This document shows, piece by piece, positions 1-51,907 of a stretch of 64,000 bases of DNA. Location of the stretch: the NCBI GenBank assembly GCA_045592745.1, contig JAZNVH010000010.1:92783-156782 (forward strand), in the 5' to 3' direction. The notes beneath the pieces were generated by a model that saw nothing but the letters and a program-made list of their open reading frames with translations, was not told the origin of the DNA and searched no databases. The stretch comes from Candidatus Aphodoplasma sp. GTDB lineage: Bacteria; Bacillota; Clostridia; UBA1381; UMGS1253. A program made the translations under genes and the position numbers. Every line of letters starts with the position of its first letter. The first letter of the stretch is position 1.

Positions 1-1289
1 TTTTCCTCTATTGCCTTAATGACAACTGCTTCAACGGCAGATGCGTCAAACTTTTTATCAAGACCTTGTTCTTTACAGTAAAGGGCAGGGTCAACGTCGT
101 TTTCAACTACTGCAATTAAGATTTTCTTGCCGGCATTACGGTTAACAGTGCCGTCATTTACCATTTTTATAATACTAAAGAGCTTTTCGGCACTGATTGT
201 TAATTCGTCTATCGTCTTGCCGTCTTTTCTCAAAACGCCAATACAGTCAGTCAAAATCCACGTTGCAGCATCTTTTGCCCCGCATCCCATATTAACAACA
301 TCATCAAGAAGCTTGCTTATCCTGTGGTTTGAAATAAGCATGTCAATTTCTTTTTCGGAAATGCCTGCCAAACGGTAATCCTCAACCTTTTCATCAAGAG
401 CGGCGGGTTTGTTTGCTTTGATTTTTTCAAGCCATTCGTCGTCTATGATTATCGGCATAAGGTTTGCGTCGGGGAAGTAGCGATAATCCGCTTCAGTTTC
501 CTTGTTACGCATAGCAAAGGTTTTTCCGCTGACATCATCAAAACGTCTTGTTTCCTGCACAAGCTCTTCTGTTTCAAATTCCAAAGCATCAATGTGGCGC
601 TGCGCTTCGTAGCGGATTGCACGCTCAATTGCTTCAAATGAGCTCATGTTCTTAATCTCTGTACGTACGCCAAATGTTTCGCTTCCTTCGGGGCGAACAG
701 AAATATTAACGTCGCAGCGCATTGCGCCTTCTTCACATTCTGAAATTCCGGCAGAGCGGAACATTGATTTTAATTTGTTTAAGTAGGTTACAACCTCTTC
801 TGCGCTTCTAAAATCGGGCTGAGTTACAATCTCGATTAGCGGAACGCTGGTACGGTTAAAGTCTACATAAGAATATTTGCCACCATGGACAAGTTTGCCT
901 GCATCCTCTTCCATATGAATCTGCTTAATGCGTATATCACGACTGCCTGCTGATGTTTTAAGTGTTACGCATCCGTTGGTGCAAATAGGATGATTAAGCT
1001 GTGTAATCTGATATGCACACGGAAGGTCAGGATAGTAGTAATTCTTTTTATCAAAGGTTGTGTATCTGTTTATTTCACAGTTAAGCATAAGACCTGCTGT
1101 AACAGCAAGCTCTACAACGCGCTTGTTCATTACAGGCAGCATTCCGGGCATACCGCTGCAGGCAGGGCATACGCAGTCATTAGGCTCGTTAGCGGAGCTG
1201 TGACCGCCACACGAACAGAATATTTTTGATTCGGTACTAAGCTCAACGTGAGTTTCAAGACCGATAACCAATTCGTAATTCATAATCAT
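1..1289 (-). CDS. gatB: Asp-tRNA(Asn)/Glu-tRNA(Gln) amidotransferase subunit B (partial, runs off left edge)
   Basis: Not in the ORF track; translated by hand from ATG at 1289, overlapping the gatA stop (ATGA). It reads MIMNYELVIGLETHVELSTESKIFCSC...CPAC...FDKKNYYYPDL...IHMEEDAG...PLIEIV...DYRYFP. The frame stays open to position 3 (429 codons). Confidence 0.96.
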   Translation of the reverse strand, partial: MIMNYELVIGLETHVELSTESKIFCSCGGHSSANEPNDCVCPACSGMPGMLPVMNKRVVELAVTAGLMLNCEINRYTTFDKKNYYYPDLPCAYQITQLNHPICTNGCVTLKTSAGSRDIRIKQIHMEEDAGKLVHGGKYSYVDFNRTSVPLIEIVTQPDFRSAEEVVTYLNKLKSMFRSAGISECEEGAMRCDVNISVRPEGSETFGVRTEIKNMSSFEAIERAIRYEAQRHIDALEFETEELVQETRRFDDVSGKTFAMRNKETEADYRYFPDANLMPIIIDDEWLEKIKANKPAALDEKVEDYRLAGISEKEIDMLISNHRISKLLDDVVNMGCGAKDAATWILTDCIGVLRKDGKTIDELTISAEKLFSIIKMVNDGTVNRNAGKKILIAVVENDVDPALYCKEQGLDKKFDASAVEAVVIKAIEE

Positions 1290-2464
1290 TCACCCTTCCT
1301 TTCGGCCGCGTCTGCAAAACCAAGAAGCAGAGGCTCGGAAAAATGCTTTCCAATAAGCTGGACACCACCACTAACCATTGCAGGCACGCCAATAAGGTTT
1401 GCCAAAGAGGTGAACACGCTCTCATCAAACACCTTGCCAAAGGCTTCGTGAATATCGTACGCTTCATAAGCTGTTTTACTCATAGCAGGAGTCAAAATAG
1501 CATCGTAATTTTTCATAAGCTCTTCAAATTTTTCTGCTATTACACGGCGTACTTTTAATGATTTATTATAGCATTCTTCGTAACGGTTTTTGGAAAGAAC
1601 ATCAGAGCCATACAAAATCACTGATTTTGTCAAAAAGTTAAAGCCTTCTGTTCTTGAATTTACATATAACTCGTCAATGTCTTTGTATTCTTTGGCGCGA
1701 TGACCAAATTTAACACCGTCATAACGGGAAATATTATTGCACGTTTCTGCTGTCATAAGAATCTGCCATGCCACGTTAACAGCATCAAAAATATCAAATG
1801 AGATTTCTTCTACAACAACACCATTCTCGCGTAGTGCGCCAGCAAAAGCGTTTATGCGTTCTTTTGTCTGCTCATCTGCTTTTTCGACGAGCTCTTTTAC
1901 AATGGCGACCTTTTTGCCCGAAACATTTTCCAAGCTATAGTCATAGCTTTCGTTTCTGAGGCTCGTTCCGTCTTTTTCGTCGTGTCCTGCAATAATCTGC
2001 ATAATCTCTTTAACACCTGATGCATTTTTCGCATATACACCGACTTGCTCACCCGAAGCAGCACACGAAATTACACCATAGCGTGAAACCGTGCCATAGG
2101 TGGGTTTTAAAAAGTCGATGCCAGATAATGCGGCGCTGCGTCTTGTAGCGCCATTCATATCTACGCCAAGAGCGGCTTTTACATCGCCATCTGCAACCGC
2201 CTGTGCGGCTGCGCCTTTTAATGAGCCTTCCTGATTTTCGTAGTATGAAAATTCACCAACAAGGTCAAGACCAAACTCGCCAACATGTGTCTTTCCGGCA
2301 ACTTTATATCCTTTGCTTTCAAGACGTGTTACTGCCTCTGCGCTAAAAAGCGGCTTGAAGCCTTCAAGTATTTTAGAGCCTGCACAGCTTTGAGCGTCTT
2401 TTACTAAAATTGTATCATCAACTGCGATGTTACCATCGCCTAATTTCGTTTTATAATAATTCAT
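1286..2464 (-). CDS. gatA: GatA-like amidase-signature protein, truncated and lacking the catalytic triad
   Basis: Amidase-signature scaffold (LKPTYGTVSRYG, NISRYDGVKFGHR, SLANLIGVPA) between aspS::gatC and gatB. Likely start is ATG 2464 behind GAGGTG (track start GTG 2473). About 392 aa versus about 480 for typical GatA. Confidence 0.9.
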   Translation of the reverse strand: MNYYKTKLGDGNIAVDDTILVKDAQSCAGSKILEGFKPLFSAEAVTRLESKGYKVAGKTHVGEFGLDLVGEFSYYENQEGSLKGAAAQAVADGDVKAALGVDMNGATRRSAALSGIDFLKPTYGTVSRYGVISCAASGEQVGVYAKNASGVKEIMQIIAGHDEKDGTSLRNESYDYSLENVSGKKVAIVKELVEKADEQTKERINAFAGALRENGVVVEEISFDIFDAVNVAWQILMTAETCNNISRYDGVKFGHRAKEYKDIDELYVNSRTEGFNFLTKSVILYGSDVLSKNRYEECYNKSLKVRRVIAEKFEELMKNYDAILTPAMSKTAYEAYDIHEAFGKVFDESVFTSLANLIGVPAMVSGGVQLIGKHFSEPLLLGFADAAERKGE

Positions 2465-2474
2465 CCTGCACACC

Positions 2475-4553
2475 TCACTTTACAAGTCTTGGCACCTGCC
2501 AGCTGTCTTCACTGCGCTCGGGAGCACCTTCTAAGAGGCTCTCACGCGTGAACGGCTGATGGCGGACATCTTCGCGCAGTACATTTGTCATAGGCATAAC
2601 ATGTACCATGGGTTCAACATTTTCTGTATCTATCGTAGAAAGAATTTTTTCTTTTTCGCTCATAGCGGCAAAAATTTTCTGAACCTTATTTTCTTCTTCG
2701 CCTGAAAGGGCGATCTGGTTTAGCTGCTGTGCATTAGAAAATGTCGAGCGCTTGCTCATAGATGATTTACCTGTGTTTGATGGGCCTGATGCACGCTGCG
2801 CGAGTGCGTTTGTATTTCCCAAAAGGTGAACATCTTCAAGCTGTTGATTTGATACAAAGCTTGGCGCACCTAAAAGAAGGTCCTGAGCGTTGCCGTTTAG
2901 AGGGAATGCAATAACGTCTAAAATCTTTTCTTCATCGGTTAACAGCATTACCATTCTGTCGATACCGGGCGCCATACCTGCATGAGGCGGAGCACCGTAT
3001 TGGAATGCTGTATAAAGAGCATTAAAACGCTTTTTAAGCTCTTCCTCTGGATAACCTGCAATTTCAAATGCTTTTTTCATGATGTCTATATCATGGTTAC
3101 GAACAGCGCCCGATGCAAGCTCTATGCCGTTACCAACAAGGTCATACTGATATGCCAGAATTTCGGTAGGGTCTTTTGTAAGAAGAGCATCCATACCGCC
3201 CTGGGGCATAGAAAATGGGTTGTGTGTAAAGATTATTTCGCCTGTATCCTCGTCTTCTTCGTACATCGGGAAGTCTACAACGAAGCAGAACTCGAATGCA
3301 TCTTCGTTAATCAAATCAAGCTGTTCTTTTTTAGCAAGCCATGTGCGTATAAGTCCTGCTTTTTTCTCGGTATCATTCTTTTTATCATCACAGATAAAGA
3401 ACAGTGTTTCGCCTTCTTTTACACCTGTTAATTCAATTATTTCTTCTTTTTGTGCGTCACTTAAGAACTTGGCGATAGGACCTGCAAATATGCCATCTTT
3501 TAAAGTGATATATCCAAGACCGCCAAGACCAACCTCAAGAGATGTTGCATATTTTAAAGAATCCTCAAAGAATTTTTTTGATTTGCCCTGACAGTTTGCC
3601 ACGATTCCGCGCACGGGCTTACCCTTAAAAGCGGGGAAGTCAACGCCAGAAAAGAAATCTGTCAAATCACAGATGATAAGTGGATTTCGAAGGTCAGGCT
3701 TATCAGAGCCGTAATACATCATCGCATCGGCATATGTTATGCGGCGAAACGGCTTTGGTGTAACCTTTTTATCGGAAAATGTTTTAAATGTATCATAGAT
3801 TAAATCTTCGCAAACATCCAAAACTTCTTCTTGCGTAGCAAACGCCATTTCAAAGTCGAGCTGATAAAACTCACCGGGAGAACGATCAGCGCGGGCATCT
3901 TCGTCACGGAAGCACGGAGCAACCTGAAAATATCTGTCAAAGCCCGACACCATCAAAAGCTGTTTAAACTGCTGCGGTGCCTGCGGAAGTGCGTAAAATT
4001 TGCCCGGATGCTTACGGCTTGGTACCAAAAAGTCTCTGGCGCCTTCCGGAGAAGAAGCAGTCAAAATCGGAGTCTGCATATCCAAAAAGCCTTTTTCCTC
4101 CATTTTGTTTCTCAAATGGCGGATAATCTTTGAGCGTTTTACCAAATTATCATGGTTTTTTGGATTACGCAAATCAAGATAGCGGTATTTTAAACGAAGC
4201 TCATCCTTGCTCAGTCTTGAAGTGCGCACATCAAAAGGCAGATTATTAAGACTTTTGCCTAAAATTTCAAGAGTGTCTGCTACAAGTTCTACATTACCTG
4301 TATCAAGCTTGTAGTTTACGGTTTCTTCGTCACGCTTGCTTACGATACCTGTAACAGAAATAACTGTTTCGCGGTTTACATCCTTTACAAGCTTGTCATC
4401 ATGGATGACCACCTGTGTTACGCCTGTGTAATCACGAAGGTCGATAAAAATAACACCACCGTGGTCACGCACAACGTCAACCCAACCGGCAAGTGAAACA
4501 GTTTTGCCGATGTGCTCATCACGTATGTCATTACAATATAGGGTTCTATACAT
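2475..4553 (-). CDS. aspS: Aspartyl-tRNA synthetase (non-discriminating type) fused to a C-terminal GatC-like domain
   Basis: AspRS motifs RDHGGVIFIDLRD, LPQAPQQFKQLLM, CFRDEDARADR.PGEFYQLD, GAPPHAGMAPGIDR. After about residue 585 comes a Ser/Gly/Asn linker, then a GatC-like tail (IDTENVEPMVHV..TNVLREDV...LLEGAPERSEDSWQVPRLVK). Confidence 0.95.
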   Translation of the reverse strand: MYRTLYCNDIRDEHIGKTVSLAGWVDVVRDHGGVIFIDLRDYTGVTQVVIHDDKLVKDVNRETVISVTGIVSKRDEETVNYKLDTGNVELVADTLEILGKSLNNLPFDVRTSRLSKDELRLKYRYLDLRNPKNHDNLVKRSKIIRHLRNKMEEKGFLDMQTPILTASSPEGARDFLVPSRKHPGKFYALPQAPQQFKQLLMVSGFDRYFQVAPCFRDEDARADRSPGEFYQLDFEMAFATQEEVLDVCEDLIYDTFKTFSDKKVTPKPFRRITYADAMMYYGSDKPDLRNPLIICDLTDFFSGVDFPAFKGKPVRGIVANCQGKSKKFFEDSLKYATSLEVGLGGLGYITLKDGIFAGPIAKFLSDAQKEEIIELTGVKEGETLFFICDDKKNDTEKKAGLIRTWLAKKEQLDLINEDAFEFCFVVDFPMYEEDEDTGEIIFTHNPFSMPQGGMDALLTKDPTEILAYQYDLVGNGIELASGAVRNHDIDIMKKAFEIAGYPEEELKKRFNALYTAFQYGAPPHAGMAPGIDRMVMLLTDEEKILDVIAFPLNGNAQDLLLGAPSFVSNQQLEDVHLLGNTNALAQRASGPSNTGKSSMSKRSTFSNAQQLNQIALSGEEENKVQKIFAAMSEKEKILSTIDTENVEPMVHVMPMTNVLREDVRHQPFTRESLLEGAPERSEDSWQVPRLVK

Positions 4554-4584
4554 GATATATTCCTCCTGTAATAGTGTGCTAAAA

Positions 4585-4799
4585 AATAAAAGTCCCGAAA
4601 ATATACAAAAGTATATTTTCGGGACGAGTAAACTAACATTTAACCCGCGGTGCCACCCGCATTGATGCTAAAAGCATCCGCTTTTTATATGAAGCTGTAA
4701 ATAAACGGAGTGTTCCCAAACTTACTACTCATCTCAAATGCGCTTTCAGTCCATGACGCATTCTCCCTTTCAGACTTTCCACAAAAGCCGAGTCTCCGT
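4585..4799 (-). promoter_or_regulatory. T-box riboswitch upstream of aspS::gatC-gatA-gatB, probable Asn (AAC) specifier
   Basis: On the - strand: T-box GCGGGTGGCACCGCG (4660-4646), stem III GATGCT/AGCATC, and terminator GTCCCGAAAATATAC-TTTT-GTATATTTTCGGGAC plus a U-tract. Apical AGGGAG/ACTGAAAG elements and basal stem ACGGAG/CTCCGT are present, with AAC-A at 4714-4711. The UGGC bulge implies a G73 tRNA (Asn/Asp compatible). Confidence 0.88.
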
Positions 4800-4804
4800 A
4801 AGTT

Positions 4805-4833
4805 ATTATAGCAAAAAATGTTTTTATTGTCAA
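4805..4833 (-). promoter_or_regulatory. SigA-type promoter for the T-box/aspS operon
   Basis: Perfect TTGACA-17 nt-TATAAT on the - strand just upstream of the T-box leader. Confidence 0.85.
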
Positions 4834-4900
4834 CATTATTTTGCCTGATTTTTTTGATATTATTAAAGTTGTTTTATTGGGACATTTTTGTATTTTAACC

Positions 4901-4929
4901 TTGATTAGTTGCGTGTTTTGTGATAAAAT
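4901..4929 (+). promoter_or_regulatory. SigA-type promoter for the PHP/AEC genes
   Basis: TTGATT-17 nt-TAAAAT. Confidence 0.5.
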
Positions 4930-4981
4930 TTCTTCTGTATATAATGAAAAAATGCTTGTTGTCTGAAAAGAGGTTTTTTAT

Positions 4982-5071
4982 ATGAGCGAAATATCTAATA
5001 AGGATTATGCTTCGGCGGGCAAGCTGTGGAATGAAGAGAGTAAAATGGCAGTATGGATGCTGATAAAATAA
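4982..5071 (+). CDS. Possible 29-aa small ORF
   Basis: MSEISNKDYASAGKLWNEESKMAVWMLIK with GAGG about 10 nt upstream and downstream of a promoter; no family recognised. Confidence 0.3.
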   Translation: MSEISNKDYASAGKLWNEESKMAVWMLIK

Positions 5072-5117
5072 AAATTTTTTAAATATTTAATTGTAATCGA
5101 CGGGAGAGGTGCAGAGT

Positions 5118-5783
5118 ATGTATAAACTTGAAACACATTGTCATACAGGTGAGGTAAGCGTTTGCGGTAAGGTTAGCGCAAACGATATTGTAGAGGCATA
5201 TATAAAGGCGGGGTACAGCGGTATAGTTATAACCGACCATTTTAACAGAAGGACATTTCTTGAAAAGCCTGAGCTTAAGACGAGCGAAATTGCAGACTAT
5301 TTTCTTACGGGCTACAGAGCAGCGCGCGAAGCGGCAAATGGCAGAATAGATGTGTTTTTGGGTATGGAGCTTACATTTTATGAAAATGATAATGACTATT
5401 TGGTATACGGTATGACAGAAAAGTTTATAAAGAAAAACCCTAACCTTATGGATATGGGTATTGAGCGTTTTTCAAAGCTTGCGCATGATAATAAAATGAT
5501 AATTTTTCAGGCTCATCCGTTCAGGAATCACATGTGCGTCATAAATCCGTCATTACTCGATGGGTATGAGGTGTTTAATGCGAATGCACGCCATGATTCA
5601 AGAAATGATATTGCACAGATGTGGGCAGAAAAATTTGGCAAGTCAATGAGCAGCGGTTCGGATTATCATCGTCTGGAAGATGTAGCAAGAGGCGGCATTA
5701 TAACGAGCAAAAAAATAACGAACAACACTATGCTCAAGGATGCACTTTTAGGAAACGATAAGGACCTTATAAAAATTATTTGA
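5118..5783 (+). CDS. PHP-domain metal-dependent phosphoesterase
   Basis: ETHCHT, ITDH, QAHPFR and SGSDYH PHP motifs. ATG 5118 follows GGGAGAGG. Confidence 0.85.
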   Translation: MYKLETHCHTGEVSVCGKVSANDIVEAYIKAGYSGIVITDHFNRRTFLEKPELKTSEIADYFLTGYRAAREAANGRIDVFLGMELTFYENDNDYLVYGMTEKFIKKNPNLMDMGIERFSKLAHDNKMIIFQAHPFRNHMCVINPSLLDGYEVFNANARHDSRNDIAQMWAEKFGKSMSSGSDYHRLEDVARGGIITSKKITNNTMLKDALLGNDKDLIKII

Positions 5784-30021: not shown

Positions 30022-30299
30022 ATAAACGCAGTGATGCGGAATAGTAGGCAAAATACTTTCGCCAAAAGAGAGATGCCGGTTGGTGCAAGGCATTGGGAAA
30101 GATTTGCCGAACTCACCGCGGAGCGGCTGCCGTGAAATGTTTGGAGAGTAGGGGCAGACGGGAACTCCCGTAACAGAGTAAAGATGTGTTGGCATCTTGA
30201 GGGCATCCTTTGTGGATGAAGAAGAGTGGTACCGCGGAAGCAAAAAAGGATTTTACGCTTTCGTCTCTTTGAATAAACGAAGAGACGAAAGCTTTTTTT
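30022..30299 (+). promoter_or_regulatory. Leucine T-box riboswitch (specifier CUC)
   Basis: Stem I with AGUA/GAA loop E, AGAGAG bulge, GGTGCAAG loop and GAA-CTC-A at 30109-30115. T-box AGAGTGGTACCGCG at 30223-30236. Terminator GCTTTCGTCTCT/AGAGACGAAAGC plus T7 (30257-30299). The UGGU bulge matches the A73 discriminator of tRNA-Leu. Confidence 0.95.
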
Positions 30300-30353
30300 G
30301 TAAATTGAAAAAGCTTTGGGAAATGAGCTTTGAAAGGGAAGGGGTTTTATCCA

Positions 30354-31742
30354 ATGAGAAAAATCAACGTATCGGACATTACATTAAAAAAACTGGCACA
30401 AACAAGAGAGGTTGCACTGCTATTTCGTGAAAAGACAGCGATTGCTGCGTGCGCAGACGCTCTCGGCGTAGATGCTATTGAACTTGCGGCAATTAAAAAT
30501 TTGCGTGAAGATACTATCGTTTATAAAACGATTGCAAAAAATATTCAAAAAAGTATTGTTGCAATTCCGGTTGGTTTTTCTTTTGATGACGTGGCAAATG
30601 CGTGGGAATGTGTAAAGGAAGCCGCAAAACCGAGACTGCAGGTAGAAGTGCCCACATCAACAGTTCAGATGGAGTATATGTATCATCTTAAAGCAGACAA
30701 AATGATAGCAAAAATCGCCGAGCTTGTTACAGAAGCGAAAAAGCTTTGTGATGATGTAGAGCTTGTTGCAACTGATGCTACACGTGCTGATGAAGAGTTT
30801 TTGATTGAAGCTGCAAAGACAGCCGAACAAAATGGCGCAAAGATTATTACAATCTGTGACGATGCGGGTGTGGCTTTGCCTGAGGAAATTGCAGAGCTTG
30901 TTTCTAAAGTAAAGCAGGCTGTAAATGCAGATGTTTATGTGCAGGTATCAGACAGTATCGGTATGGCAGTATCGGCGGCGGTATCTGCAATCGGAGCGGG
31001 CGCAGATGGACTAAAATGTGCAATGGCAGGAGAAGATTCGCTTTCTATGGGCGCTTTGGCAAAAATGGTTTCAGCACGCGGAGATGCGATTGGCGCTTCG
31101 GTAGCTTTGGAGAATACAAAAATTCACGCAAGTATCGAGGATATGCTTTCTAAAATCAATCATGCAGGATATGAAAGTGCAGATGACGTTAGCGAGAAAA
31201 AGAAGATTTTGCTTGATGAGGATAGTACACTTTCTGATGTGGCATATGCGGCAAATGTGCTTGGTTATGATTTGTCCGACGAGGATAATGGAAAGGTTTA
31301 TAAGGCACTTATGCAGGTTTGTGAGAAGAAAGGCTCTGTCGGAGTAAAAGAATTTGAAGCACTTATTGCAAGCAGTGCAATGCAGGCACCGTCAACATAT
31401 CATTTTGAAAGCTATTCGACAAGTTGTGGTAATTTAACAAGTGCAATGTCACAGGTAACGCTAAGATGCGGTGATGAAATTCTTTGCGGTGTAAGCACGG
31501 GCGACGGTCCGATTGATTCGGTATTTCGTGCAATAGAGCAAAGCATAGGATATCATTATGAGCTTGACGATTTCCAGATTCAGTCGGTAACAGATGGCAA
31601 GGAAGCGCTTGGCTCTGCCTTGGTAAAGCTTCGCGTAGGCGGCAAGCTCTATTCAGGTAACGGCAGCTCTACTGATATTGTTGCAGCAAGTATAAGAGCA
31701 TACATAAATGCGCTTAACAAGATTGTGTTTGAGGAGGCGTAA
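30354..31742 (+). CDS. LeuA (2-isopropylmalate synthase)-like pseudoenzyme with intact C-terminal regulatory domain
   Basis: Colinear with LeuA (AAKPRLQV, LCDDVEL..TDATR, GDGPIDSVF.AI, SGNGSSTDIVAASIRAYINALNK), but LRDGEQ reads LKKLAQ and HCHND reads QVSDS. Start ATG 30354 behind GAAGGGG. Confidence 0.88.
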   Translation: MRKINVSDITLKKLAQTREVALLFREKTAIAACADALGVDAIELAAIKNLREDTIVYKTIAKNIQKSIVAIPVGFSFDDVANAWECVKEAAKPRLQVEVPTSTVQMEYMYHLKADKMIAKIAELVTEAKKLCDDVELVATDATRADEEFLIEAAKTAEQNGAKIITICDDAGVALPEEIAELVSKVKQAVNADVYVQVSDSIGMAVSAAVSAIGAGADGLKCAMAGEDSLSMGALAKMVSARGDAIGASVALENTKIHASIEDMLSKINHAGYESADDVSEKKKILLDEDSTLSDVAYAANVLGYDLSDEDNGKVYKALMQVCEKKGSVGVKEFEALIASSAMQAPSTYHFESYSTSCGNLTSAMSQVTLRCGDEILCGVSTGDGPIDSVFRAIEQSIGYHYELDDFQIQSVTDGKEALGSALVKLRVGGKLYSGNGSSTDIVAASIRAYINALNKIVFEEA

Positions 31743-31744
31743 GG

Positions 31745-34204
31745 ATGAAACTGACCTTTTCTACAAAAAACGTAAACAGGGCATCGTTTTTTGATACCTG
31801 CCGTTATGCATACGATTACGGATATGCAGGTTTTGAAATTTATGATGCAATTAAAGAGAGAAAACAACACTATGACAGCATTCTTCGAAGTGAACGCACA
31901 GCAGACTCAAAAAGAAAGCTTTTTAACCGTGGACTTAACGTTTCTGCATTGGTGTATCCGTATCCGATAGAAAGTAGCGAAGCGACACCTGAATCTGTTG
32001 TAAAATATGTTGATATGGCGACAAATGCGGGAATTGAGCGCGTTATTTTGCGTATCGAGGAAAAGACTTCAAACGATGTGCTTTATGAAAAACTCAGTGA
32101 GGCTGTCAAAAAAGCCGGAAAGGCTGATGTTCAGATATTGTTTGAAACATCGGGCTATCTTGCAAAAACTGAGAATGTAATTGATATTATAAACTTTTTT
32201 TCATCTGCGGCAATAGGTGTTTCGTGGAATACGCGTGAAACGTATTTTAAAGCGGGCGAGAGTGCAGACACAACCATTAAAACACTTGGCGCGTATATAA
32301 AATATGTGCGTCTTGGTGATATGAAAGATGGCAAAAGCGTCTTAATCGGTGAGGGAGAGCTTCCTGTTACAAATGTTATTAATGCGCTTTCTTCACTTAA
32401 TTTTGACGGATATATTTGCGTGGCGTGGAATGAAGAAATTCAGGATGCTGACATTGTACTTACGCATTTCACAAATTATATTGCTGGACTTTCTCGAAAG
32501 AAAAAAGAAAAAGACGGTGCATATTATAATCGCTCAAAGACGGGTACATTTGTATGGAAAAAATACGATGTTATTGATGCAACTTTTTCCGATGTGCTTG
32601 ATACGATGGTTGAAAAGTACCCTGACCAGTATGCGTTTAAATATACAACGCTTGATTACACAAGAACGTATTCGCAGTTTCGCCGTGATGTAGATGAATG
32701 TGCGGCGGCACTTATATCGCTTGGCGTAAAGGCGGGCGACCAGGTTGCTATATGGGCGACGAATGTGCCGGCGTGGTTTATTACCTTTTGGGCAACGACA
32801 AAAATCGGCGCAGTACTCGTTACAGTTAATACCGCATATAAAATTCATGAGATTGAATATCTTTTAAAGCAGTCGGATACGCATACGCTTGTTATGATTG
32901 AGGATTGTAAGGATATTAATTATATAGAAATTATCGAGGAGCTTTGTCCCGAACTTAAAAGCATAAATCCAGGAGAGCCGCTTTATTCAAAAAATCTTCC
33001 GTTCCTGCGAAATGTAGTTACAGTCGGTTTTTCAATGGATGGATGTCTTACATGGGAACAGATGCTTGAGCGTTCTGCACTTGTGCCTCAGCAGGAGGTG
33101 CGTCGCAGAGCCTCGCTTGTAAAGCCCGACGATGTTTGTAATATGCAATATACATCGGGCACTACGGGATTTCCAAAGGGCGTAATGCTTACGCACAGAA
33201 ACATTGTCAACAACGGAAAAACCATTGGTGACAGAATGGATTTGTCAACAGCAGACCGTATGATGATTCAGGTGCCGATGTTCCATTGTTTTGGTATGGT
33301 GCTTTCCATGACATCAATGATGACACATGGCGGTACACTTTGTCCAATGCCATATTTTTCGCCAAAGTCATCACTTGCATGTGTAAACGATGAACACATA
33401 ACCTGCTTTAATGGTGTACCGACTATGTTTATAGCAATGTTTAACCATGCCGATTTTGCAAAGACGGACTTTTCGTATATGCGTACGGGAATTATGGCGG
33501 GAGCAAACTGTCCGGCAGATTTGATGCGTCGTGCGGCAGATGAGATGAATATGCGTGAGATTATTTCTGTATATGGTCAGACCGAGGCTTCGCCCGGATG
33601 CACAATGGGTGAGGTAAACGAAGATCTTGACCACAGAGTTGAAACTGTTGGAAGTGCATTTCCCGGTGTTGAATGTAAGATTATTGACCCTGAAACAGGC
33701 GAGGAACTACCCGATGGTGAGAGCGGCGAATTTGTTGCGCGTGGCTTTAACATTATGAAGGGCTATTATAAAATGCCTGAAGCAACTGCACAGACAATTG
33801 ACGCAGACGGATGGCTTCATTCGGGAGATATTTGCTGTAGAACAAGCGATGGATATTATAAGGTTACAGGACGTCTTAAAGATATGATTATTCGTGGAGG
33901 CGAAAATCTTTACCCGCGTGAGATAGAGGAGTTTTATCTTACACACCCGAAGGTGCGCGACGTGCAGGTAGTAGGTGTGCCTGACGAAAAGTACGGCGAA
34001 GAGTGCTGTGCGTGGATTATTCTTCATAAAGGTGAAGAGTCTGATGAAAACGAGATGCGCGAGTATGGTAATGCTTCTATTGCACGCCACAAAGTGCCAA
34101 AGTACTTTGTATTTGTTAAAGAATTTCCAATGAACGCTGCAGGCAAAATTCTAAAATATAAGATGCGTGATGAGTCAGTGGAGATTTTAGGATTAAAAAA
34201 GTAA
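31745..34204 (+). CDS. Fusion: degenerate xylose-isomerase-like TIM barrel plus AMP-forming acyl-CoA synthetase
   Basis: The N-terminal ~255 aa follow the sugar-phosphate isomerase/epimerase pattern (YAGFEI, LIGEGELP, FDGYI). The C-terminal part has intact ANL motifs YTSGTTGFPKG, YGQTE, WLHSGD, GRLKDMIIRGGEN and AGKILK. Confidence 0.9.
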   Translation: MKLTFSTKNVNRASFFDTCRYAYDYGYAGFEIYDAIKERKQHYDSILRSERTADSKRKLFNRGLNVSALVYPYPIESSEATPESVVKYVDMATNAGIERVILRIEEKTSNDVLYEKLSEAVKKAGKADVQILFETSGYLAKTENVIDIINFFSSAAIGVSWNTRETYFKAGESADTTIKTLGAYIKYVRLGDMKDGKSVLIGEGELPVTNVINALSSLNFDGYICVAWNEEIQDADIVLTHFTNYIAGLSRKKKEKDGAYYNRSKTGTFVWKKYDVIDATFSDVLDTMVEKYPDQYAFKYTTLDYTRTYSQFRRDVDECAAALISLGVKAGDQVAIWATNVPAWFITFWATTKIGAVLVTVNTAYKIHEIEYLLKQSDTHTLVMIEDCKDINYIEIIEELCPELKSINPGEPLYSKNLPFLRNVVTVGFSMDGCLTWEQMLERSALVPQQEVRRRASLVKPDDVCNMQYTSGTTGFPKGVMLTHRNIVNNGKTIGDRMDLSTADRMMIQVPMFHCFGMVLSMTSMMTHGGTLCPMPYFSPKSSLACVNDEHITCFNGVPTMFIAMFNHADFAKTDFSYMRTGIMAGANCPADLMRRAADEMNMREIISVYGQTEASPGCTMGEVNEDLDHRVETVGSAFPGVECKIIDPETGEELPDGESGEFVARGFNIMKGYYKMPEATAQTIDADGWLHSGDICCRTSDGYYKVTGRLKDMIIRGGENLYPREIEEFYLTHPKVRDVQVVGVPDEKYGEECCAWIILHKGEESDENEMREYGNASIARHKVPKYFVFVKEFPMNAAGKILKYKMRDESVEILGLKK

Positions 34205-49576: not shown

Positions 49577-51907
49577 TTACACGCCAATAGTATTTTTAAC
49601 GTTTTCTTCGCTAAATGATGCATCTGTAAATTCATTCATAAATGCCTCAAATGAGCCTGATTCATTTTTATCGGAGCAGCGAACAACCCATGCGATTGTA
49701 TCACCATAAGCACGATAATCGCAGTCCATTACTGCGTCATTATTGTTAAGCTCGAGTGTTTTTGAACACCATACGCCCATATAAGAGTTGTTAACGCGGG
49801 CAAACATAAAGCCATCACGCTTTATTTCTTCATCCATTGCAAATGAAGGCCAGTAAATATGGGTAAGCTTTGTCGGATGCTCGTCGGGGATATTATAGTA
49901 GCAGTAAAGCGTATTGTCATCTTGCTTTAGTGCAGGAAATACGCCATTTCCATACCAATAATCAGGACGTATACCGCCAAAGTCTTTTTCTGTGCCCGGA
50001 TGATTTACGAATGTATAACAGCGGTTTGAAAGAGCCGCATACCAAAGATGCTGCTGATAGCCATATTTGCCGGGAACAAACAAAGACGTTCCGTGAAACC
50101 ACTCGTTCATGATCTTTGTCTTATAATATTCTGTATCTGTATATTTTTCTTCAGGGAGTGGCGTGCGTCTTGGAGAAGCAACCGATGTAAGCATATAGTT
50201 TTTCGTTTTTTTTGTAGTAATGCTTGCACGTCCCGAATCAAATGTAACATTGGCATTATTGCGCATAAGTTCCGTCAAATCATCAGGCATTTTATATGAG
50301 CTGTAATAGAAGTATATAAGCCAACCACTGTATGCTTGGGCGCAGTTTTCGTCGAGCAGATACAAAAGACTTTGCAGTCCTGACTCGTATGGAGTGAGCG
50401 AGCTTCTGTATATTCTTCCCATAGGAGCCATATGTATACCGTCAAAGCATTGAAGTGCTGTTTCACGAAGAATTCGGTCAAGAGCGTTTTTTGCGCGGGA
50501 CTTGATAACTTCGTTTGTTGAAAAATCATAAAGGACAAGAAGCGGAGCAGTTGTAACAAGCAGATATCCGCCTGCCAAAAATTCTTCAAAGCCCTCGTGC
50601 TCAATTACATCAAACCACTCGTTTATACGGGCTATGCCTTTTTTATACTGGTCTATGCCGCGTTTGCCTGAATGACGGAAAAACTCCTCGGGCCATATAC
50701 TTCCTGCGAGCATCTGGCAAACAAAGAATGTGAGCGCGTGATTTTCGCTCCAAAAGCACATTGCATCTGCACCTTCCTCGTCCATCCAGTATCTAAAGTC
50801 AAGAGCGGCATCGTGTATCTTCTTTTTGTATTCATCACTTATTGGTAAAAGCTTGTATATGTAAAGAAGACTCATAAGTGCAAAGTCAGAACAATCTCTA
50901 CAAGTGCGTACAAAGTCAAGAGGCATATCAAAATGCGCATAATCTTTTTCGCAGATAGACTGTTTTATGTAGTAACTGGCAAGAAATTTGAAAGTATCTA
51001 AATAAGAGTGAGCTTTTGTGTCAGCTATATTTTTCAATATTGAATCTGCTTTATCTTTCTTTGATTCAAATTTATTAAACACAAGCTTTTCATTCTGAAG
51101 AATATCAAATCGGCGCATAAACTTTTGTGCGCATACTTCAAACGATACTTGGATATTTCTTTCTCTGTTTATATCATAGGTGTTGCCTTCGCTCCATACG
51201 CTCTCATTTTCTCCAAGCTTAACTGTTACAGGTAATGGCGGTTGTGTTTTTGAAATAAGCTTTGCATCATCACAACGCAAATCACAAAGCCAGTTTTCAG
51301 CGTCTTTAAGCTTTGCAAGAGTATCTTCCTTGACAGGAAGAGTTACACATATACCGTCTGTATCAAAAAGCTGAAGTGAGAACATATTTCTGGTGTCGCG
51401 TACACCAAAGTTCTGGAGGCATACAAATATATCATTAACGCCTTTCTTTAGGTCTAATGTTATGTCAAGATAGTTTATCGGTTTATATACGGGGTCTTTA
51501 ATGTTTGCACAGTGGACACCGTTTAGCCACATATCAACAGTACAGTATGACCAGATTCGAGCGCGAACAGTTTTTGCTTTGTCACTTACAAGCTGAGTTA
51601 GTGCATGAATATTAACACTCGTAAGAGTGAAGTAGAAGGTTGAGAAATCTATGTATGTATTACGGTTTTTTGCATAAAATTTCCACACCGCACCAAGTGA
51701 GCTTTCTTCGCCGAGAGTGCCCCATGCGGGTACTTTTTCCATAGGCTTTGCGAAAATTTTTCGCATATCAGCCTCGAATTTTAGCTGATTTTTATCTGTA
51801 TGGGGTGCTACAAAAGGCTCAGTAACAGCCTCAGTTGTAAGATAGTTTAGAACATATCCCTCTTTTGAAAGTGAAAAACATACTTTTGAATCAGTCAACA
51901 TAAACAC
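49577..51907 (-). CDS. 776-aa cytoplasmic protein of unknown function, possibly carbohydrate lyase-like
   Basis: Long intact ORF with no signal peptide. Beta-rich N-terminus, helical core with FRYWMDE/FWSENH and a beta-rich C-terminus (YGYQQHLW). The fold assignment is inference. Confidence 0.6.
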   Translation of the reverse strand: MFMLTDSKVCFSLSKEGYVLNYLTTEAVTEPFVAPHTDKNQLKFEADMRKIFAKPMEKVPAWGTLGEESSLGAVWKFYAKNRNTYIDFSTFYFTLTSVNIHALTQLVSDKAKTVRARIWSYCTVDMWLNGVHCANIKDPVYKPINYLDITLDLKKGVNDIFVCLQNFGVRDTRNMFSLQLFDTDGICVTLPVKEDTLAKLKDAENWLCDLRCDDAKLISKTQPPLPVTVKLGENESVWSEGNTYDINRERNIQVSFEVCAQKFMRRFDILQNEKLVFNKFESKKDKADSILKNIADTKAHSYLDTFKFLASYYIKQSICEKDYAHFDMPLDFVRTCRDCSDFALMSLLYIYKLLPISDEYKKKIHDAALDFRYWMDEEGADAMCFWSENHALTFFVCQMLAGSIWPEEFFRHSGKRGIDQYKKGIARINEWFDVIEHEGFEEFLAGGYLLVTTAPLLVLYDFSTNEVIKSRAKNALDRILRETALQCFDGIHMAPMGRIYRSSLTPYESGLQSLLYLLDENCAQAYSGWLIYFYYSSYKMPDDLTELMRNNANVTFDSGRASITTKKTKNYMLTSVASPRRTPLPEEKYTDTEYYKTKIMNEWFHGTSLFVPGKYGYQQHLWYAALSNRCYTFVNHPGTEKDFGGIRPDYWYGNGVFPALKQDDNTLYCYYNIPDEHPTKLTHIYWPSFAMDEEIKRDGFMFARVNNSYMGVWCSKTLELNNNDAVMDCDYRAYGDTIAWVVRCSDKNESGSFEAFMNEFTDASFSEENVKNTIGV

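Follow-up and report, generated by a model that had tools for sequence, protein, structure and literature searches.

GatCAB is the textbook case of a glutaminase and a tRNA-dependent kinase and transamidase that are coupled by a gated tunnel for ammonia. In the canonical Asn-transamidosome, this enzyme and AspRS are held together in a tRNA-dependent, non-covalent complex. In Clostridium acetobutylicum, a T-box-controlled operon for tRNA-dependent amidation was reportedly described by Saad et al. in 2012 (cited in PMC4206432). Carbamoyl-phosphate synthetase I of ureotelic vertebrates, like some other ammonia-dependent enzymes, keeps a vestigial glutaminase domain. In this study, an operon encoding an AspRS-GatC fusion (aspS::gatC), a GatA-like protein without its catalytic triad and a GatB was analyzed. 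It lies in a 64,000-nucleotide stretch (the window) of Candidatus Aphodoplasma sp., i.e., contig JAZNVH010000010.1 of assembly GCA_045592745.1, positions 92,783 to 156,782. From the sequences and a structural model, we propose with moderate confidence that the operon would specify a hard-wired Asn-transamidosome under Asn regulation, in which the amidotransferase has ceased to produce ammonia for itself.

The operon was placed at window positions 1-4833 on the minus strand, in the tightly packed order of leader, aspS::gatC, gatA-like gene and gatB. The ATG of the gatA-like gene lies 10 nt past the aspS::gatC stop codon, and an alternative gatB start, an ATG at 1289, overlaps the stop codon of the gatA-like gene. 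The features of the operon are as follows.

4833-4805, minus strand: sigma-70 promoter, TTGACA and TATAAT with a 17-nt spacer carrying a TG extension, 12/12 match to consensus
4592..4803, minus strand: divergent T-box leader, with the Rfam RF00230 match at 4842-4617
4553-2475, minus strand: aspS::gatC, 692 aa, from Pfam and NCBIfam
2464-1286, minus strand: gatA-like gene, 392 aa, from Pfam, alignment and AlphaFold2 model
1..1283, minus strand: gatB, 427 of about 472 aa, 3' end beyond the window edge, from NF004012

An earlier note on this DNA, made from the letters alone, had proposed a single operon under T-box control, an AspRS-GatC fusion, an in-frame GatA without its triad, and a GatB with intact metal ligands and altered motifs. 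The promoter, T-box, terminator and three genes were all confirmed, and the other three claims also held, and extended to relatives, in the comparisons given below.

The GatA-like protein matched PF01425 with an E value of 1e-55. Its best NCBIfam model was gatA (TIGR00132), in which it reached 273 bits (cutoff 481) from profile position 61 onward. About 60-65 N-terminal residues are missing from the protein. The residues were aligned to solved GatA chains and are compared here in the numbering of Staphylococcus aureus GatA (2df4_A).

K79, catalytic Lys: D16 in the GatA-like protein
S154, cis-Ser: L82
S178, nucleophile: A106
T175, presumed tunnel residue: M103
R200, presumed tunnel residue: R128, retained
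D211, presumed tunnel residue: E139, acid retained

In two further columns, where canonical GatAs have R (97%) and D (96%), the window protein has V282 and S349. These columns correspond to S. aureus R358 and D425, which we take to be the glutamine-binding pair. The putative yeast counterparts of this pair, R334 and D418, have been described (PMC4027206). The 9-residue loop just before GGSSGG was deleted, and a GG was changed to NG in the former glutaminase pocket. Parts of the amidase signature were kept, i.e., D102, G105, R108, KPTYG.VSRYG, and S137.

The AlphaFold2 model of the protein, made with 35 family members, had a predicted local distance difference test score (pLDDT) of 92.6 and a predicted template modeling score (pTM) of 0.92. 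In Foldseek, the GatA chains of five crystal structures (GatCAB or transamidosome) and of an integrative GatA-GatC model were matched with template modeling (TM) scores of 0.89-0.93; for 3h0l_A, 2df4_A, and 4wj3_A, the scores were 0.92-0.93. Judged by alignment and model, the protein is a well-folded GatA without a glutaminase site.

Close relatives of the GatA-like protein (391-394 aa, identity 75-88%) formed at least 120 clusters at 90% identity, from metagenome-assembled genomes (MAGs) of Clostridia and Ruminococcaceae. Where NCBI names were given in these clusters, the name was 'hypothetical protein', and two JGI entries were named as GatA. The D16 residue was fixed across 120 close clusters. 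At the former nucleophile site, the same clusters carried Ser (65), Ala (40), Thr (14), or Phe (1), a drift that is expected for a site no longer catalytic.

The ratio of nonsynonymous to synonymous substitution rates (dN/dS) was estimated by the pairwise Nei-Gojobori method, in which dS was saturated and the values are rough. It was 0.06-0.15 for the gatA-like gene, 0.09-0.11 for the gatC module, 0.03-0.07 for gatB, and 0.03-0.04 for the aspS module. The gatA-like gene is thus under purifying selection and is kept for a function. The ratios of gatA and gatB, for which the earlier note had named relaxed selection as one part of a refuting outcome, were both far below 1. A pseudogene or relaxed selection was rejected for the gatA-like gene on this ratio and on the constant length of the protein in at least 120 clusters. 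An assembly artifact or chance was rejected on the same evidence, together with the recurrence of the same fusion in at least 120 clusters.

GatB was recognized by NF004012 with 513 bits against a cutoff of 338, on the 427 visible residues. The C-terminal PF02637 match was partial, with the window edge cutting the gene at residue 427; the orthologue in locus L001 has 472 aa and a full GatB_Yqey domain (YqeY tail). The metal, kinase and transamidase residues were kept in the window GatB, i.e., E10, H12, E14, E125, E126, D127, and E151. The changed positions were C89, K79, Y83, T94, H230, and N274. To place these changes, 14 GatBs that partner a dead GatA of the acidic type were compared with 51 partners of canonical GatA. 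All seven catalytic residues were unchanged in the partners of dead GatA, the partial L088 sequence covering only the first five. The six other positions separated the two groups as follows.

Position 89 (S. aureus K88): K or Q in 51/51 canonical partners; C, G, A, T or S in 14/14 dead-GatA partners
Position 79: R in 51/51; K in 13/14
Position 94: S in 46/51; T in 14/14
Position 230: Q in 50/51; H in 13/13
Position 83: F in 50/51; Y in 12/14
Position 274: D in 51/51; N in 9/13

At position 89, the change therefore accompanied dead GatA in 14/14 cases, against 0/51 for canonical GatA. We take K88, together with E125, to be the tunnel gate of S. aureus GatB. Its equivalent in Helicobacter pylori, K89, has reportedly been examined for a role in the tunnel. 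All 13 partner GatBs of full length formed one clade nested among Clostridia GatBs, and so the changes could be co-adaptations or could reflect shared ancestry.

The first gene of the operon joins the two remaining components in a single polypeptide. Pfam search recognized the OB fold, tRNA-synt_2, GAD, and GatC domains, the last at residues 616-686 (PF02686, E 1e-11). The AspRS equivalog NF001750 of NCBIfam gave 740 bits against a cutoff of 443, and the GatC model TIGR00135 gave 53.1 bits against 47.1. Its modules are as follows.

2805..4553, minus strand: AspRS module, residues 1-583, of bacterial type (OB fold, class II core, GAD insert)
2733..2804, minus strand: variable linker of about 24 residues (584-607), in place of the aspS stop codon and spacer
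2475..2732, minus strand: GatC module, residues 608-692, plus stop codon (PF02686, TIGR00135)

The linker was the least conserved segment, with a mean identity to consensus of 0.71 vs 0.83-0.96 elsewhere among 120 fused homologues. In unfused relatives, AspRS ends with ...IRIR or ...IQIRE before the stop codon. The same fusion was found in at least 120 clusters at 90% identity, at 689-693 aa with one exception, a 741-aa gene call. The fusion appears to have arisen within the clade from adjacent aspS and gatC genes, as far as these sequences indicate. NCBI names it 'aspartate--tRNA ligase' only. The AspRS-GatC architecture is already catalogued as a bifunctional equivalog (NF009460), for which the window fusion scored 454 bits against a cutoff of 1379. 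In view of this family and of the C. acetobutylicum operon, the suggestion in the earlier note that no natural system of this kind had been described was too broad.

The leader matched the Rfam T-box family RF00230 with 47.1 bits (E 4e-9 in an 800-nt search), below the gathering score of 93. Homologous leaders scored 36-56 bits. The leaders of nine loci aligned well and the promoter was common to them, L001 and L008-L013 included. The transcript apparently starts only a few nt before the Stem I base helix. The elements of the leader are as follows.

4799-4705, minus strand: Stem I
4714-4712, minus strand: specifier AAC (Asn), followed by the purine A4711
4658-4646, minus strand: T-box sequence GGGUGGCACCGCG with UGGN bulge
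4655-4652, minus strand: antiterminator bulge UGGC
4625-4592, minus strand: intrinsic terminator, 15-bp stem and U tract

The 3' strand of the antiterminator overlaps the terminator at 4625-4592, and the two structures are mutually exclusive. For Stem I, RNAalifold on the nine leaders gave 26 pairs with compensatory changes in 15. The stem begins with a base helix, a small 3'-side bulge with AAC, an 8-bp helix, a conserved internal loop, and a 4-bp helix. Farther out come GGGAG, which is similar to an AG bulge, a second 8-bp helix, and a distal loop similar to the canonical platform. In place of a large S-turn loop, a bulge of 4 nt (AAC and a purine) carries the specifier, and no K-turn was seen in Stem I (4705-4799). 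This atypical Stem I is probably the reason for the Rfam score below threshold.

At 4714-4711, AAC followed by A or G was invariant across the nine leaders. The discriminator base of tRNA-Asn is G73 (PMC9499178). The UGGC bulge fits this base. Since the specifier AAC with its purine and the UGGC bulge both match, the leader is predicted to respond to tRNA-Asn in its uncharged form, and the job of the operon can therefore be argued to be the supply of charged tRNA-Asn. The discriminator of tRNA-Asp is also G73, and that of tRNA-His is C73. Three other specifiers were considered and rejected. CAC (His), which overlaps AAC, varies in the third base among leaders (CAC or CGC), and UGGC mismatches C73. 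GAC in the distal loop reads GGC in L013 and L004, and GAA, which overlaps AAC, reads UAA or CAA in L011 and L004.

How far dead GatA reaches was searched in 1.84 billion representatives at 50% identity. Near-full-length neighbors of the GatA-like protein numbered 131. The catalytic Lys was absent in 62 of the 131, and Asp or Glu stood there in 40 of these 62. In a rough neighbor-joining tree, 39 of the sequences without the Lys, the window protein included, fell in one clade entirely without it. In a contig search with a peptide pattern that canonical GatA also has, seven of the 80 loci listed were from the dead clade. The gatA-like gene adjoined gatB or gatC in every genomic context examined, in the following arrangements.

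L001, L008-L013: fused aspS::gatC
L004: unfused aspS and gatC, full-length dead GatA
L014: unfused aspS and gatC, truncated dead GatA
L002, L088, L089: gatC, gatA-like gene and gatB, without aspS
L090: GatA with K-to-A, S-to-A and S-to-A changes, apparently recent, beside canonical GatB

These arrangements put the loss of the triad first, N-terminal truncation second and the fusion last. That the fusion and the triad loss were a single event was rejected, as dead GatA was also found with free GatC or unfused aspS. Dead GatA is thus wider than the fusion, and a deep clade of Clostridia has it in operons of gatC, gatA-like gene and gatB. The expectation in the earlier note that fusion, triad loss and GatB changes go together thus stood in part. 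Triad loss of the acidic type and the GatB changes coincided in 14/14 cases, but the fusion is nested within them, L002, L088, and L089 being without aspS and L004 and L014 unfused. All named members were uncultured MAGs, with sources including goat caecum, roe deer colon, reindeer, rumen, and anaerobic digester, and no cultured representative was found in the cluster look-ups. MAGs with the operon include JAFQAZ01 (RGIG1655), JAFTXJ01 (RGIG4236), CACYNO01 (RUG12106), DUNU01, and GCA_052840685.1, and those with unfused forms include GCA_964545475.1 and GCA_009778595.1.

About 14 small GatA lineages without the Lys were also scattered among canonical GatAs in the tree (P0226, P0256, P0216, P0223, P0225, P0260, and others), so that loss of the GatA glutaminase may have occurred repeatedly. 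Genomic context was looked up for one of them, P0253 (L090). In this locus, on a Logan contig (ERR13731180), the order is gatC-gatA-gatB, with GatA at 2181-3662 and GatB at 3662-5119. The GatA is otherwise canonical and has Ala at all three triad positions ('PMALADV', 'PGGASGG', 'DAGGAVR'). The GatB has canonical K89, R79, and Q230, and canonical states throughout apart from T94. By sequence, the locus looks like a recent, independent inactivation of GatA.

A different fusion was found in L070:7228-10107 (plus strand), in the MAG of Ruminococcus sp. RGIG8501 (JAGAJO010000009.1). Its 960-codon open reading frame (ORF) encodes a complete GatB (625 bits) joined to an archaeal-type non-discriminating AspRS (ND-AspRS; NF003483, 'aspartate--tRNA(Asn) ligase', 520 bits with the cutoff at 353), and it adjoins a GatA with the canonical K/S/S. 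On its gene structure, this is a second, independent covalent transamidosome made via a different subunit. In other loci of Lachnospiraceae and Clostridia (L015, L019, L022, L023, L030, L034, L044, L048, and L060), a class II gene with about 30% identity to the AspRS of the window stands immediately before canonical gatC-gatA-gatB, some 1.5 kb ahead of the GatA match. The L015 gene, the only one scanned, was an archaeal-type ND-AspRS (NF003483, 568 bits). With such genes upstream of canonical gatCAB in many of the Clostridia loci retrieved, dedicated transamidosome operons appear to be common in Clostridia.

Read-through of the terminator would express aspS::gatC, the gatA-like gene and gatB. 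If the operon works as an ammonia-dependent transamidosome, the AspRS module, by a predicted specificity that the Asn T-box and the linkage to gatCAB support indirectly, would charge tRNA-Asn with Asp, and the GatC belt would assemble GatA-like protein and GatB on each synthetase subunit. GatB would then phosphorylate Asp-tRNA-Asn with ATP and amidate the activated product with free NH3 or NH4+ from a cytoplasm that is rich in ammonia in the gut or rumen. If the GatA-like protein no longer makes ammonia, the free form is the one that has to serve. It would most likely enter via the remodeled former glutaminase pocket, and may also enter via the GatB tunnel, which is without the K88 side chain.

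The habitat of all sources, i.e., gut, rumen and digester MAGs, was counted for ammonia use. In yeast GatFAB, NH4Cl supports transamidation once the glutaminase is bypassed, and truncation of the peptide that caps the GatA site raises the NH4Cl activity (PMC4027206). Ammonia dependence is probable and has this precedent. The earlier note had considered GatA to be kept only as a scaffold. The first part stands, since selection has kept the gene, but the protein may be more than an inert scaffold. The conserved Asp or Glu at the Lys site, the GG to NG change, the lost N-terminal segment and loop, and the retained R200 and D211 residues suggest by sequence that the former pocket was rebuilt as an ammonium entry.

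A wider claim is possible but doubtful. It is that a deep clade of uncultured Clostridia from gut, rumen and digester relies for its whole supply of Asn-tRNA-Asn on an ammonia-dependent GatCAB, with the glutaminase pocket turned into a site for ammonium capture and entry, with the enzyme of the most derived branch welded to its ND-AspRS, and in genomes without AsnRS and canonical GatCAB. If so, this would be the first natural glutamine-independent tRNA-dependent amidotransferase.

Several points weigh against ammonia dependence. Ser still stands at the nucleophile position in about half of the close homologues. The GatB substitutions, common to one monophyletic clade, could be lineage markers and not adaptations. 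The roles of K88, T175, R200, and D211 in the tunnel and of R358 and D425 as Gln anchors are presumptive. A canonical gatCAB, asnS or asnA/asnB may also lie elsewhere in the genome, which would make the operon accessory.

This last point leads to the strongest of the alternatives, which we regard as unlikely. The operon would then be an accessory, non-catalytic paralogue beside a canonical GatCAB or AsnRS, with a regulatory or quality-control role, and the complex would bind, protect or sequester Asp-tRNA-Asn or carry out the GatB kinase step only. The dead clade is a separate lineage nested among canonical Clostridia GatBs, and its MAGs are labeled as several families, which looks like a paralogue or horizontal spread. 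C. acetobutylicum reportedly has redundant AspRS and GatCAB sets. However, all GatB catalytic residues are kept under the strong constraint given above, and an Asn-specific T-box suits a supplier of charged tRNA-Asn. A kinase-only reaction would also be a futile cycle wasting ATP.

It is improbable that the GatA-like protein still frees ammonia from an amide donor (Gln, Asn or other) with non-canonical catalytic residues. Much of the amidase signature segment is retained, and about two thirds of the close clusters have Ser or Thr at the nucleophile site. Against this, the Lys, the cis-Ser, T175 and two further near-universal columns were all replaced, and the loop before GGSSGG was deleted. 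The nucleophile site is unconstrained, with Ala in 40/120 close clusters and Phe in one, and no alternative invariant pair of nucleophile and base was evident.

Quite improbable, too, is a separate, unlinked ammonia-generating enzyme, i.e., a glutaminase, asparaginase or class I glutamine amidotransferase (GATase), that docks on the GatA-like protein and supplies the tunnel, which is retained. In its favor, two presumed tunnel residues (R200 and D211 in S. aureus) are kept and the pocket has lost its N-terminal segment, but no candidate donor gene was conserved beside the operon, and the neighbors differed at every locus examined. That a nucleophile other than ammonia attacks the activated Asp-tRNA-Asn to give a non-canonical aminoacyl-tRNA is hardly credible; near-universal GatB residues around the tunnel and active site were replaced, but the leader senses tRNA-Asn charging as for ordinary Asn decoding, no biosynthetic genes are associated, and the explanation is the least parsimonious.

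The remaining 59 kb of the window encodes ValRS, PolC, EF-Ts, dxr, ispG, rhamnose and uronate genes, and a Leu T-box. Among its annotated ORFs, no asnS, gatCAB, asnA/asnB or tRNA genes were found. The Leu T-box (30022-30271, plus strand) is canonical, with 131.5 bits, a GAA-CUC-A specifier region (Leu), and a UGGU bulge. Downstream, at 30330-34204 (plus strand), a LeuA-like gene (HMGL-like and LeuA_dimer) is followed by an unusual 819-aa fusion of a xylose-isomerase-like TIM barrel and an AMP-binding enzyme. A 776-aa ORF at 49577-51907 (minus strand) had no Pfam family at E <= 1e-5. In sequencing archives, no RNA-seq run contained the operon sequence, and the matching runs were DNA only.

If ammonia dependence is true, coupling to a glutaminase would be dispensable in ammonia-rich anaerobic habitats. 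Tunnel gating could be studied in a natural mutant series, which starts with dead GatA of full length, goes on to the truncated form and ends in the fusion, and in which GatB residues co-vary. In abundant but uncultured bacteria of gut and rumen, the supply of ammonium would bear directly on the translation of Asn codons. As covalent 1:1 transamidosomes, the AspRS::GatC fusion and the independent GatB::ND-AspRS fusion of L070 should ease structural study. The result also bears on annotation, since the GatA-like protein is currently named 'hypothetical protein', 'amidase family protein' or 'GatA' in NCBI pipelines. In a full-text search lacking most subscription journals, no paper was found on a GatA that is catalytically dead, on a GatCAB that depends on ammonia or on a fusion of AspRS with GatC.

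Compared with the canonical GatCAB/AspRS Asn-transamidosome, the window operon agrees in its components and in the two-step chemistry predicted for it, with a bacterial GAD-domain AspRS and clear homology of GatA, GatB and GatC. It differs in that AspRS and GatC are one polypeptide, and in that the glutaminase triad and the putative Gln-anchor columns are missing from GatA. As in the operon reported from C. acetobutylicum, a Clostridia T-box stands over genes of the indirect Asn-tRNA pathway. On the window side, the specifier is AAC only, with the overlapping GAA unconserved in homologues, and the reduced Stem I has a 4-nt specifier bulge and no K-turn was found in it. The dead GatA and the fused GatC are likewise features stated for the window.

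The family NF009460 / PRK12820, 'bifunctional aspartyl-tRNA synthetase/aspartyl/glutamyl-tRNA amidotransferase subunit C', has the same order of AspRS then GatC. The window fusion is outside this equivalog by its score and apparently originated in its own clade. In carbamoyl-phosphate synthetase I, catalytic residues were likewise lost, the module was retained, and the synthetase works on free ammonia. That module is a class I GATase, whereas GatA has the amidase signature fold and the chemistry is unrelated, so the comparison is an analogy only.

In AtzE-AtzG of s-triazine catabolism (6C62), a Foldseek match, a GatA and GatC pair has also left its canonical role as a glutaminase. There, AtzE works as an amidase and has no GatB, whereas here GatB is retained and GatA is inactive. 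The N-terminal-domain truncation mutants of yeast mitochondrial GatFAB (PMC4027206) share with the predicted window enzyme the use of ammonium with the glutaminase bypassed, which is increased by uncapping of the GatA site. Those mutants were engineered from a Gln-dependent enzyme, whereas the loss in the window lineage would be natural, ancient, and fixed.

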